Source: a bacterium (lineage in GTDB: Bacteria > Patescibacteriota > Minisyncoccia > UBA6257 > 2-01-FULL-56-20). Taken from it: DNA of 64,000 nt. Both the position numbers and the translations under genes were made by a program. Numbering within the stretch: position 1 is the stretch's first letter; every line of letters begins with the position of its first letter. The DNA lies in NCBI GenBank assembly GCA_027310625.1, contig DAIDAM010000003.1:2239-66238 (forward strand). Reading direction: 5' to 3'. Shown here piece after piece: positions 41,276-44,535 of this stretch. The notes under the pieces are model-generated. The model saw nothing but the letters and a program-made list of their open reading frames with translations. It was not told the DNA's origin and searched no databases.

Positions 41276-41797
41276 TTAAAAGGCAATAGCTGTGAGAGTA
41301 ACATTGGGGCTCTGCTGTGTGAACACGGTTGAAGGATTCGGCGTTGTGATCTGCAAGTTCAAGGTCGAGGTTCCCGCCGCCGCTATATTAGTCGCCAGGT
41401 CCTGATCCGAAGTGGTTAACGCCGTGCCACCAGAAAAAGTGGAACAAGTACCATTCTTGAACTGATGCACATATTGATCGCTTGCCGTCGTAGCTCCCAA
41501 TGCCCAGTTGGCGGTGGCCACCCCCTTGATCCTGAAAGTTTCCGCCACATTGCCATCATTAGTAACGGTTTGAGCATCGTTTAGTTCTGAAGTGCATGTG
41601 CTCTTGCTGGTATTAGAGCCGAGTGTTCCATACGCGACCGCACCATCAGCAACGGAAAGCGAAATACTCTGCACCGTAACCGTGGCCGTAACTGTTGCCG
41701 AAGAACCAGCCAAAGCCACTGAATAAGCGACGAGTATCCCAGCTAGCCCGATTATTCCAGTAGAAACAACGAACGGTTTTGTAATTTTTCTTGACAT
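41276..41797 (-). CDS. small secreted protein; whole protein is the domain shared with the C-terminus of 42104-43981 (W-x-L motif)
   Basis: 'TCTSELNDAQTVTNDGNVAETFRIKGVATANWALGATTASDQYVHQFKNGTCSTFSGGTALTTSDQ' aligns with 'TKSTCSTELNDAQTVTNNGNVNENFNIRGQNSANWTLGATAGSNQYVQKFLNGTCSTFSGGTALTTSDQ'. Confidence 0.55.
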   Translation of the reverse strand: MSRKITKPFVVSTGIIGLAGILVAYSVALAGSSATVTATVTVQSISLSVADGAVAYGTLGSNTSKSTCTSELNDAQTVTNDGNVAETFRIKGVATANWALGATTASDQYVHQFKNGTCSTFSGGTALTTSDQDLATNIAAAGTSTLNLQITTPNPSTVFTQQSPNVTLTAIAF

Positions 41798-41926
41798 ATC
41801 TTTGTTAATTTAAATTTATACCAAACTTATAATTCGACCATTTAATAAACACAAAAAGCGCCGCTAAAACAGCGCCTTAAGTGTCTACGATTATAAGTAA
41901 AGAAGTAAAATCGCGGAGCGATTTTA

Positions 41927-41956
41927 CTCTCTCTCTCTCTCTCTCTCTCTCTCTCT
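41927..41956. repeat. (CT)15 dinucleotide microsatellite
   Basis: A perfect ctctct... run of 30 nt in the intergenic spacer, next to a GTAAAATCGC-TCC-GCGATTTTAC hairpin. Confidence 0.9.
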
Positions 41957-42103
41957 TGGTTTTGACTCCGAGGTTTGATAAAATAAAATAAGTGTCCTTA
42001 TCATAGCCATATATAAACTACGAGTTTATTATACCACATATCAACTTGAAATGTAACCAATACAATTCCATTATATCACTAATCAGCTTGATAATCTACA
42101 ATT

Positions 42104-43981
42104 TTACGGTTGTACGGCGGTAATCGTCACATCCACTGACTGTTGAGTGTAAACCGTGGAAGGATTCGGGGTGTTAATTTGAAGATTCAGCGTGGCTGTC
42201 CCGCTCGGCGCAATACCAGTCGCAAATGACTGATCGGAAGTCGTCAGGGCAGTACCCCCAGAAAAAGTGGAACAAGTACCATTCAAAAATTTCTGCACAT
42301 ACTGGTTGCTTCCCGCTGTCGCCCCCAGCGTCCAGTTGGCGGAATTCTGACCACGGATATTGAAATTCTCGTTTACATTTCCATTATTAGTAACCGTTTG
42401 AGCATCATTTAATTCAGTAGAACAAGTGCTTTTGGTGGTGTTCGCCGGGATCGTCCCATAAGTGACCACTCCATCGGAAACGGTGACAGAAATAGTCGGC
42501 GTCAATGTGGTGAAAGTGTTGCAAGTCGTAGAATCTGTGAAAGTATTACTGCCATCAGGGTCTTTGACTGACGCCTTCCACCAGTATTGGGTGTTGTAGG
42601 AGAGTGCATCAGCTGACTGTAAAGTAAAACTGCCTTGAGTGCCGGAGTTATAGCATGATGTTGGATTATTGGTGCAGGTCGCGTCAGTTCCGCCCCAACC
42701 GGTAGAATTAGTTGATTGGTCATGAGCATTTCCTACAACCGTCGTGCATGCGCTGTTCGAATAAATTGTGACTTTATAGCTCAAATGGTCTGGGTCGGGA
42801 TCGGTCGCGGTCATTAAAAAAGTTGGGGTTACCGAAACGCCAGTCGCGCTATTTGCCGGCGAATCCTGCGAAGGCGCGTTGGGCGCGACATTAGTGTTTT
42901 TTTTCGCGTAAACCACATTGAAATAGAGCGGCATGTTGTCCGTACCGGTATTGAAAGTGGCAGTAAGGGTATGGGTATGCGTCGAACCGGCGGCCGCGGT
43001 GCCACTTGTTGAGCTGCCCTTTGTTTTGGCGCTGGCTGCGCCGGACGCGCCGCTGGTTTCGTTGGCATGATCATGGGTTGTGGCGCCCTGTGAAGTGCCA
43101 TTATAACTCGTGAAGTCGCGAATAAATTGCTGATAAAAGGGGCCTCCACTTGCCGATTTTATTGTCCATGCCGAACCCGGATCGCCGTCGAACATGGCAA
43201 TCATTCCATTGGGCAAAGATGCAGTATTAGAATTCGCCTTGGCGATGATTACTTGAATATAAGGCGGGAGAGCTGTCATGCTTGCGGTTTGCGTAGCAGC
43301 GGGGGCAGTATGGGTATGCGTAGTTGCGGCACCTGCATTAGCTGTACCAGAGCAAGTATTGAGCGTACCGTTTGCAGTTCCAAGAGAACTCCAAGTAAGC
43401 GAATGGGTATGCGTGTCTGATCCTCCCGTGCCGACCGTGGAGTTAACTTCAATCATTTTATTGTTGATGGTGCCCGATTGATCAGTCCATCCTGAAGGAG
43501 CAGCTGCGTCAAAAATCGCGATTGCGCCGGCCGGAATGGAAACAGGAATGCCGGCGTCAAATTGAATGAGTTTATAACTTTGATAAGCCGGCAAATTGTT
43601 CGCCGACCCAACCGTGACGGAAAGCGAAGCGTGTGTGTGATTGTAGGAAGAACAAGAGTTGGTAGAAGCCGCAGTCGTTCCTGCTGATGGCGCGCTGTTT
43701 GTGACACTTGCTACCGTTGGCGTATGCGTGGAATTTCCTCCAGTCGTGCCGAAATTCGCCACCGCCTCTCCGCGCGGGAACTTTCCGTCATAAGTTGTTA
43801 CGATACTCCAGCCGGTCGGAGCAGACGCACCATCCCAAAAAAGAAGCATGCGCACTGTGGCGGCTTTTGCATCTTTTGCCCCCGGGGGCACGGGTGGATT
43901 ATTCCAAATTCGCGGCCAGCCGGAAAAAATCCAACCTGCTATTAAAACTATAATTAAAAATTTTTTTATATAACGAGACAT
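42104..43981 (-). CDS. large surface protein: N-terminal anchor, three phage-tail-collar-like repeats each followed by THTH segments, C-terminal shared (W-x-L motif) domain
   Basis: 'MLLFWDGASAPTGWS', 'IAIFDAAAPSGWTDQSGT', 'MIAMFDGDPGSAWTIK' resemble the 'FAGxxAPxGW' motif of phage tail collar/Mdp domains. 'GGSDTHTHSLTW', 'TTHTHTAPAAT'. C-terminal 160 aa homologous to 41276-41797. Confidence 0.55.
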   Translation of the reverse strand: MSRYIKKFLIIVLIAGWIFSGWPRIWNNPPVPPGAKDAKAATVRMLLFWDGASAPTGWSIVTTYDGKFPRGEAVANFGTTGGNSTHTPTVASVTNSAPSAGTTAASTNSCSSYNHTHASLSVTVGSANNLPAYQSYKLIQFDAGIPVSIPAGAIAIFDAAAPSGWTDQSGTINNKMIEVNSTVGTGGSDTHTHSLTWSSLGTANGTLNTCSGTANAGAATTHTHTAPAATQTASMTALPPYIQVIIAKANSNTASLPNGMIAMFDGDPGSAWTIKSASGGPFYQQFIRDFTSYNGTSQGATTHDHANETSGASGAASAKTKGSSTSGTAAAGSTHTHTLTATFNTGTDNMPLYFNVVYAKKNTNVAPNAPSQDSPANSATGVSVTPTFLMTATDPDPDHLSYKVTIYSNSACTTVVGNAHDQSTNSTGWGGTDATCTNNPTSCYNSGTQGSFTLQSADALSYNTQYWWKASVKDPDGSNTFTDSTTCNTFTTLTPTISVTVSDGVVTYGTIPANTTKSTCSTELNDAQTVTNNGNVNENFNIRGQNSANWTLGATAGSNQYVQKFLNGTCSTFSGGTALTTSDQSFATGIAPSGTATLNLQINTPNPSTVYTQQSVDVTITAVQP

Positions 43982-43983
43982 AC

Positions 43984-44535
43984 TTAAGGCGTACCCAATA
44001 CATTGGGATTTGTAATATCAAAAAGTGTTTCGGAAATAAAATTGGAGCTATTTTTGCAGGATTCGTAACTCACTCCCGCACCGGAGCCAATACAAGCATC
44101 GAAATCATAGCCGTATTCTACAAAGCTATAATGGCCCGGCGGTAAATTGGTAAGAGGGGTGCCATTATTGCCGAAACACTGCGGAGTGCATAAAGAAAAT
44201 TCTCCGACAGTCCGCATGGAATTGATATCTTGATCAAAATATTTAATCGCAGCACAGAGGTTATTGGCGGCATCCAGATTATTACTAATGGCAATCGGAT
44301 GGTCGGGTTTATCTAAATTATAGATAAAGCCGTTATGATTATTAAAATCAAAATCGCTGAAAGCTATTGCGCAAGCATTATCTGCCGCTGGAGTGGCAAT
44401 ATTTATCGCCCGCGCCTCTCTAATTTCTGGCGGTATTCGTAGATTTTGCCAAATCTGCGGCCGGCCGGAAAAAATCCAAGCAAAAATAATAAGAAATATA
44501 ATTCCTGTCCGTAAATATTTAATGTGCGCATTCAT
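43984..44535 (-). CDS. hypothetical protein sharing N-terminal anchor motif with 42104-43981
   Basis: 'IFAWIFSGRPQIWQNLRIPPE' versus 'IAGWIFSGWPRIWNNPPVPPG'. The DNA is also similar (ccaaat(c/t)tgcggcc(g/a)gccggaaaaaatccaa). Confidence 0.45.
   Translation of the reverse strand: MNAHIKYLRTGIIFLIIFAWIFSGRPQIWQNLRIPPEIREARAINIATPAADNACAIAFSDFDFNNHNGFIYNLDKPDHPIAISNNLDAANNLCAAIKYFDQDINSMRTVGEFSLCTPQCFGNNGTPLTNLPPGHYSFVEYGYDFDACIGSGAGVSYESCKNSSNFISETLFDITNPNVLGTP

Follow-up and report, generated by a model that had tools for sequence, protein, structure and literature searches.

We identified an operon of surface-protein genes in a 64,000-nucleotide stretch of a Patescibacteriota genome (contig DAIDAM010000003.1, positions 2,239 to 66,238, forward strand; hereafter the window). 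We consider the chances about even that this locus encodes a self-assembling module for surface display and adhesion in contact with a host, organised like a WxL gene cluster. Three genes lie within positions 41276-44535 and four more follow with short gaps; all seven are on the minus strand. The core of the operon comprises a large protein of 625 amino acids (aa), a 173-aa small protein that consists largely of the same domain that ends the large one, and a 204-aa membrane-anchored companion with an immunoglobulin (Ig)-like domain. Members of the Candidate Phyla Radiation (CPR; Patescibacteria) live attached to other cells. Little is known of how they attach to and exploit their hosts, and annotation is missing for most of the proteins on their surface.

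A shared domain ends the large and small proteins

The small protein gene (41276-41797, minus strand) encodes a Sec signal peptide (aa 1-30, ending in A-L-A), an N-terminal extension and an Ig-like domain (aa 45-173, 41279-41665). In a BLASTP alignment, aa 45-171 of this protein and aa 497-623 of its 625-aa neighbour are 70% identical across 127 aa (E 4e-52). The original prediction that the 173-aa protein is the domain ending the 625-aa protein is thus borne out; the alignment defines a domain of ~130 aa, shorter than the 160 aa proposed. At the DNA level the two domain copies are 72% identical, and the duplication is therefore old. An identity of only 72% rules out recent gene conversion or cassette switching between the copies.

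Small proteins of this type form an unannotated family with 280 matches and are 50-70% identical between CPR classes. Across 40 homologues, W98, Y56, Y109, N83 and Q162 do not vary, and conservation of T99 and L100 is 90% or more; W98 is the sole tryptophan of the domain. Such unusually high conservation is in keeping with a ligand or partner that is itself conserved. Within the small protein, conservation is highest in the N-terminal extension (SSATVTATVTVQS, aa 31-44, 41666-41707), with a mean top-residue frequency of 0.72 over aa 34-44 and of 0.55 in the domain. The corresponding positions of large proteins are unconserved (0.23), and the 625-aa protein lacks the extension.

AlphaFold models of both proteins are confident, with predicted local distance difference test (pLDDT) scores of 87.5 (small protein) and 86.8 (large protein). 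The shared domain is predicted to adopt a generic Ig/PapD-like sandwich; its fold matches include TasA-like proteins, and none is specific. As a monomer, the small protein is modelled as a complete eight-strand sandwich with no obvious empty groove, and its extension is disordered (pLDDT ~63). Searches of Pfam and NCBIfam yielded no match for the 173-, 183- or 625-aa proteins, and NCBIfam and PHROGs offered nothing useful for the window proteins. PDB sequence searches with the 625-aa protein, the shared-domain profile and the 204-aa-family profile returned nothing significant. An exact-pattern scan of IMG/VR found no relatives of the shared domain.

Large proteins combine a distinctive signal motif with exchangeable heads

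The large protein gene (42104-43981, minus strand) encodes a signal motif, three repeats, a spacer and the shared domain. The first 40 residues (43862-43981) comprise a hydrophobic helix followed by GWPRIWNNPPVPPGAKDAKA, an extended signal motif with an A-x-A end. After the repeats, a domain resembling FN3 and PKD domains (aa 357-494, 42500-42913) serves as a spacer, and the shared Ig-like domain with its NWTL motif completes the protein (aa 495-625, 42107-42499). A spacer of this FN3/PKD-like type also precedes the C-terminal domain in close relatives of the 625-aa protein.

Immediately upstream is a gene for a 183-aa protein (43984-44535, minus strand), whose stop codon is 2 nucleotides (nt) ahead of the 625-aa gene start. 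In this protein, the extended signal peptide motif (WIFSGRPQIWQNLRIPPEIREARA) precedes a ~135-aa domain that contains Cys and matches no family. The N-termini of the 183- and 625-aa proteins are 39% identical over 41 aa (E 6e-11), in agreement with an earlier claim that the two tandem genes have a common N-terminal anchor.

The motif can be written W[IVL]F[ST]GWP.[IV]W.NP..PP.I..A.A, with the A-x-A ~20 residues beyond the hydrophobic core, and occurs in the window at 43862-43981 and 44416-44535 (minus strand). We also found it in the large proteins of 13 other loci (L005, L006, L008, L015, L017, L019, L020, L022, L025, L028, L043, L061 and L063), which come from a number of named CPR lineages and, beyond these, from genome bins without assignment. 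The motif matched none of the sorting signals known to NCBIfam or Pfam.

The C-terminal domain of large proteins is constant and the heads in front of it vary. Heads include Gly_rich_2, M23 plus MG2 peptidase, S8 subtilase, BNR and DUF7483 domains, as well as repeats. S8 subtilase or M23 plus MG2 heads on the same C-terminal domain are present at loci L037 (8608-10971), L038 and L040 and in proteins P0206 and P0213. These heads suggest that the module displays wall- or protein-degrading enzymes as well. We also observed LamG and DUF2341 domains beside the repeat head in Chloroflexota proteins without the shared domain.

The operon is conserved across the CPR

We recovered 80 genome loci with a profile of the small protein. 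Shared-domain proteins are encoded at 79 of these loci and the 204-aa family at 74. A 344-aa family with a Cys-rich N-terminus (and a dockerin in some members) is encoded at 40 loci, and a cohesin-type family that includes the 699- and 288-aa proteins of the window at 35. The operon comprises three to five genes, usually in the order large, small, 204-aa, Cys-rich and cohesin protein, and a locus normally has a single large and a single small copy. The large-small-204-aa order is kept in ~74 of the 80 genomes, most of them Patescibacteria. Only these four families recur. None of the 80 loci revealed a co-conserved sortase, peptidase, usher or ATPase, which implies that no assembly enzyme is involved.

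The operon is distributed among Paceibacteria, Saccharibacteria, Microgenomates, WWE3, Dojkabacteria and other lineages, and the closest named homologue is in a Candidatus Pacebacteria genome. Relatives with ~30-35% identity are present in Omnitrophota, Zixibacteria, Eisenbacteria, Ignavibacteria and Lentisphaerae, where the companion has two Ig domains. We also identified the full CPR-type operon in bins labelled Bathyarchaeia (L022) and Gammaproteobacteria/Pseudomonadales (L006, L007, L010, L011 and L023-L025); these archaeal and proteobacterial labels are probably binning or naming errors. We found no description of the operon in the literature on WxL proteins in Patescibacteria or on cohesins and dockerins in the CPR.

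The companion is a membrane-anchored Ig-like protein

The 204-aa protein (40565-41179, minus strand) has a signal peptide, a GVGV..G.I strand, one Ig-like domain, a C-terminal transmembrane helix and a basic tail. Its family comprises 655 cluster representatives at E<=1e-3 (clusters at 50% identity). Both the N-terminal GVGV..G.I strand and the C-terminal hydrophobic stretch with its basic tail are conserved throughout the family. The Ig-like domain is of the NEW3/fn3_5/PapD type, spans ~135 aa and is single in CPR members. Five members (P0256, P0266, P0269, P0272 and P0284) have an additional conserved helical tail of ~100 aa after the transmembrane helix, predicted to lie on the cytoplasmic side. 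This tail hints at a link to the cell interior in some members of the family.

The original prediction compared the 204-aa protein to the DUF916-type companions of WxL loci. It is a genuine companion, with a C-terminal transmembrane helix and a basic tail, adjoining the shared-domain genes in ~74 of 80 genomes. The assignment to DUF916 itself falls short of significance: the WxLIP_PGBD (DUF916) model scores 14.3 bits against a cut-off of 27.3 (E 0.042), and fn3_5 scores 26.7 bits, slightly below its own cut-off. DUF3324 has no match in the 204-aa protein and none in the two-domain versions of other phyla. Pfam matches in 42 members of the family are to NEW3 (24), fn3_5 (17), PapD_N (6, all weak) and WxLIP_PGBD (3). 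When the family profile is searched against the PDB, WxLIP structures are the second and third best matches, below significance (E 0.31-0.36; EfmWxLIP1 E 0.31). Comparison with the WxLIP protein of locus L085 gives 34% probability in hhalign and 18.8 bits in hmmsearch. These signals of WxLIP similarity are weak but repeated, and none is significant alone.

The locus has the layout of a WxL cluster

WxL domains are marked by two Trp-x-Leu motifs, and WxL clusters are defined by a small domain-only protein, a large protein that carries this domain C-terminally and a transmembrane-anchored Ig protein (PMC10599100). An AlphaFold prediction for the WxL system has a strand of the partner protein completing the WxL sandwich.

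The locus described here contains at least two shared-domain proteins and a transmembrane-anchored Ig partner, and so has the layout of a WxL cluster; the correspondence is one of layout only, since the domains are not WxL or WxLIP by hidden Markov model (HMM). It resembles the WxL clusters (Csc) of Lactobacillales and Listeria, in which WxLIP has a DUF916-DUF3324-transmembrane architecture, in several respects. Both combine a small domain-only protein with a large protein that has variable N-terminal binding domains, and both include an adjoining Ig-fold protein with a C-terminal transmembrane helix, usually in single copies. Both also have a conserved W-x-L behind a strand resembling T-V-T-[DN]-x-G. 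The operon differs from WxL clusters in that no sequence homology is detectable, there is one W-x-L rather than two, DUF3324 is absent and DUF916 is not significant. It also differs in its distribution, which covers Patescibacteria and a small number of other uncultured phyla, and is often extended by dockerin and cohesin genes.

The W-x-L motif noted in the original prediction is real; membership of the WxL family is not supported. The shared domain contains a single motif, NW(A/T)L, with no second tryptophan. Pfam WxL (PF13731) has no match at E<=1 in the window proteins, none at E<=10 in 40 small-protein homologues and none in 10 distant homologues. Neither WxL nor Collar matches were found among 80 homologues (40 of the small and 40 of the large protein). 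As a positive control, the WxL HMM detects protein P0233 with 34.8 bits (cut-off 25). Aligned with genuine WxL domains by hhalign, the shared domain scores 1.4% probability, or 0.6% with an 85-sequence profile. By these sequence comparisons, the shared domain is not detectably a WxL domain.

P0233 (locus L084, 476-1975) is a CPR homologue with a domain swap. It contains a spacer like that of the 625-aa protein (52% identity) and ends in a genuine Pfam WxL domain, at the same position, rather than in the shared domain. Sharing a spacer at this level of identity, P0233 probably belongs to a related organism. L085 encodes the small WxL protein most closely related to P0233, and 8001-12485 of L085 constitutes a complete genuine WxL cluster: a small WxL protein, a WxLIP_PGBD plus LytR_C protein and a large TIG plus WxL protein. 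The proposed WxL-like display module is favoured by a layout that matches the WxL-cluster definition, by synteny that holds across genomes, by the exchange of heads on a constant C-terminal domain, by the domain swap in P0233, by the predicted Ig/PapD-like fold, by the weak WxLIP signals of the 204-aa protein, by the conservation of the small protein and by the phage-related head.

The repeat head is homologous to phage tail proteins

The head of the 625-aa protein (aa 41-356, 42914-43861) consists of three ~105-aa repeats: R1 (aa 41-145, 43547-43861), R2 (aa 146-253, 43223-43546) and R3 (aa 254-356, 42914-43222). Pairwise matches between them have E values of 5e-8, 6.5e-7 and 4e-12, and confirm the three repeats with TH stretches described previously. 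Each repeat contains G.I..F...P.GW, followed by GG..TH.H, HTH and P.Y..v..ak, and has two H-x-H motifs.

The head is clearly homologous to the tail proteins Pas28 and Pas29 of Actinoplanes phage phiAsp2. An HMM of the repeats matches Pas29 with E 2.5e-26 and Pas28 with E 1e-22, and BLASTP aligns the head with a phiAsp2 protein at 28% identity over 378 aa (E 1e-16). Pas28 and Pas29 are also the best BFVD fold matches of the head (Foldseek E 1e-12 and 2.5e-11), and each has about three repeat units (four HMM matches each). The annotation of Pas29 is that of a possible receptor-recognising protein with HXHY motifs; Pas29 is also a member of a tail family in PHROG (PHROG 5795), whose own HMM does not match the 625-aa protein at E<=0.01. 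In common with phage H-x-H tail proteins, the head has triple repeats of ~105-140 aa with G.I..(F/W)...P.GW, RG, GG..THxH and HTH motifs and a terminal P.Y strand. It differs from the phage proteins in that three units are fused in one chain here and form a homotrimer there. In addition, the 625-aa protein is, judging from its sequence, Sec-secreted and cell-bound rather than part of a virion, and the module is rare in phages.

The relationship to T4-type short tail fibres (Collar, PF07484, plus Gp10_C) is more distant than that to Pas28 and Pas29, with the same order of motifs. The repeats had been likened to phage tail collars; homology to phage tail proteins holds in both sequence and fold. 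Pfam Collar has no match in the 625-aa protein or 40 homologues, and a control phage protein scores 88 bits. The repeats lack a ~31-residue CDG...LPDL segment that makes up the bulk of the Collar model, which explains the HMM miss. An hhalign comparison of eight verified phage Collar proteins with a profile built from 167 repeat units gave 10% probability (E 0.003) in local mode and 47% probability (E 3e-5) in global mode; control comparisons with unrelated alignments gave 0.1-0.5% probability. Repeat and Collar/Gp10_C motifs align in order, with a gap of ~31 residues. The resemblance to Collar/Gp10_C modules is at the level of motifs only and is suggestive only.

The proposal that the cassette was assembled from phage-like parts is overstated. 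The phage link is confined to the head, and the repeat module is present in 1 of 50,697 phage records. The exact-pattern scan of IMG/VR found no relatives of the head, and tblastn of the head region against phages returned nothing, probably through low-complexity masking.

Cellular homologues contain repeats in threes, sixes or nines, and the R1, R2 and R3 types are each conserved. Multiples of three fit a single-chain pseudo-trimer, and we infer that the repeats form a receptor-binding head of this kind. Histidines gather at one metal site in T4-type fibres. By analogy, the conserved HTH of each repeat could contribute to a site of six histidines around one metal.

A proposed mechanism and its alternatives

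In the proposed mechanism, all parts would be exported by Sec. The 204-aa protein would be held in the membrane by its C-terminal helix with its Ig domain outside. The 173- and 625-aa proteins would be kept at the surface through the shared domain, which may bind the 204-aa protein, the other copy of the domain or a conserved wall component. The likeliest contact would be beta-strand or edge complementation, the mode predicted between WxL and WxLIP. On the FN3-like spacer, the large protein would project its variable head. The head encoded here is a probable pseudo-trimer, which would bind metal through its H-x-H motifs and recognise a ligand on another cell. Finally, the dockerin and cohesin genes would add a second membrane-tethered component. 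The data show that the domain is shared, the operon conserved, the head exchangeable and, in this genome, homologous to phage proteins; the physical complex, the mode of anchoring, metal binding and a role in host attachment are all putative. The original prediction of a receptor-binding or host-attachment cassette is partly supported: the locus is a conserved surface module in which phage-like parts do not extend beyond the head, and attachment is a possible function.

Several observations weigh against this mechanism. Sequence homology of the shared domain to WxL could not be shown. The 204-aa protein has one Ig domain rather than a DUF916-DUF3324 pair, and its Pfam matches are mostly to generic families. 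Simple 1:1:1 docking leaves the small-protein extension unexplained. Moreover, co-occurrence in an operon is no proof of physical interaction.

The extension would fit a tip-shaft-base fibre assembled by strand donation without an usher or sortase, a reading that we regard as unlikely. Here the small protein would polymerise via its extension to form the shaft, the large protein, lacking an extension, would form the tip, and the GVGV strand of the 204-aa protein would be the donor at the membrane base. The conservation of the extension in small proteins but not in large ones, its lack of structure in the monomer model, the conserved GVGV..G.I strand and the weak PapD_N matches in 6 of 42 companions are all consistent with such a fibre. 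A head joined to a pilin domain is also the layout of a tip adhesin, and so strongly conserved a small protein would suit the role of a subunit that packs through several interfaces. Donor-strand pili (archaic chaperone-usher Csu and the CS1/CFA-I class) similarly have a small subunit of the abundant type with an alternating-hydrophobic N-terminal extension and a large protein that combines a head with the subunit domain, and the companion has weak similarity to their PapD_N. However, the fibre would have no usher, its companion is membrane-anchored and its host is monoderm. Its subunit is already a complete eight-strand sandwich in a high-confidence model, and no locus encodes tandem copies of the domain. 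The general proposition that Patescibacteria build an enzyme-free fibre, with swappable adhesin, peptidase or phage-receptor-binding heads on a large tip, a small protein polymerising via its TATVTATVTVQN strand and a 204-aa base, is a long shot. If true, the fibre would be the organelle of host attachment long sought in the CPR, and a monoderm equivalent of chaperone-usher pili that does without an usher.

Alternatively, there may be no dedicated complex. The shared domain would be an independent wall-, glycan- or substrate-binding module, the small protein a free-standing copy of it, and the neighbouring genes merely co-regulated. This explanation, which seems rather improbable, accounts for the joining of the domain to enzymes (S8 and M23 peptidases, BNR) in the manner of carbohydrate-binding modules, and the invariant W98, Y56, Y109, N83 and Q162 would suit glycan binding. 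It does not account for the near-universal large-small-204-aa order, usually in single copies, at 74 of 80 loci over distant phyla, as such conserved adjacency is hard to explain without functional coupling. Nor does it account for a conserved extension that is specific to the small protein. A prophage, tailocin or other phage-derived receptor-binding remnant is largely refuted and has very little probability left. The homology of the head repeats to phiAsp2 tail proteins and their motif-level likeness to Collar/Gp10_C would fit such an origin, but all the proteins have secretion signals, and in ~80 genomes the operon lies among ordinary cellular genes with no phage genes. The scarcity of the repeat module in phage records and the failure of the exact-pattern IMG/VR scan to find the shared domain point the same way. 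In the window, the locus is surrounded by housekeeping genes (fmt, def, those for ribosomal proteins L9 and L27, and one tRNA), and no phage structural or other phage-like genes were found among the neighbours.

As a WxL-like display and adhesion module, the operon would be a concrete candidate for host attachment in the CPR, and a widely conserved one, in which each functional step is putative. It is one of few surface modules kept across the whole CPR radiation. It indicates that the WxL-type three-protein layout exists far outside Firmicutes, on a domain without detectable sequence relation to WxL. The three families are unnamed and deserve names and profile models. If the module is an attachment or attack device, it offers targets for genetics in cultivable Saccharibacteria and for cryo-electron tomography.

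Downstream dockerin and cohesin genes, leader and surroundings

The dockerin and cohesin genes of the window (36445-40515) have counterparts beside the shared-domain genes in 35-40 of the 80 genomes. The 344-aa protein (39481-40515, minus strand) has a signal peptide, a Cys-rich N-terminal module that 40 loci conserve, a Q/N/G linker and, at the C-terminus, a dockerin, which some family members share. The 288-aa protein (38575-39441, minus strand) has a signal peptide, a cohesin-like domain and a C-terminal transmembrane helix. Its cohesin-like domain is homologous to the N-terminus of the 699-aa protein (36445-38544, minus strand), which contains a cohesin domain, Big_13-like Ig domains and transmembrane segments. 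The 699-aa protein is likely the membrane-bound partner of the dockerin protein. This arrangement of a dockerin protein and membrane-anchored cohesin proteins, with a predicted pairing between them, resembles cellulosome-type assemblies. Unlike those, it includes no glycoside hydrolases, and its partners are encoded in a conserved operon with shared-domain genes.

A 319-aa membrane protein encoded within 45030-46381 has an Ig-like middle region in common with the 699-aa protein. Upstream of its gene are a 106-aa GIY-YIG protein gene and a tRNA gene (46311-46381). Near P0233 in L084, a GIY-YIG gene is likewise followed by a gene for a 319-aa protein; no similarity was detected between the two 319-aa proteins.

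A 306-nt leader (41798-42103, minus strand), conserved in a related genome, separates the large and small genes. It contains a promoter-like site (42057-42028), a TGGTATAAAT box near 41825 and two hairpins at 41929-41903 and 41878-41855, the second of which has a T-run behind it. Between the promoter-like site and the hairpins is a perfect (GA)15 tract on the coding strand (41927-41956). A tract of (GA)~16 occupies the same place in L004 (7842-7872), from a different species, and in L005 and L020 (CT)8 tracts occur upstream of the small gene. Each of the three Logan contigs that include this gene terminates in the (GA) tract. Strand slippage may change the length of the tract, or its only effect may be to break assemblies.

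Two small genes for four-helix-bundle proteins of the 23S_rRNA_IVP/bAvd type (34142-34516 and 35128-35514) lie on either side of the peptide deformylase gene.

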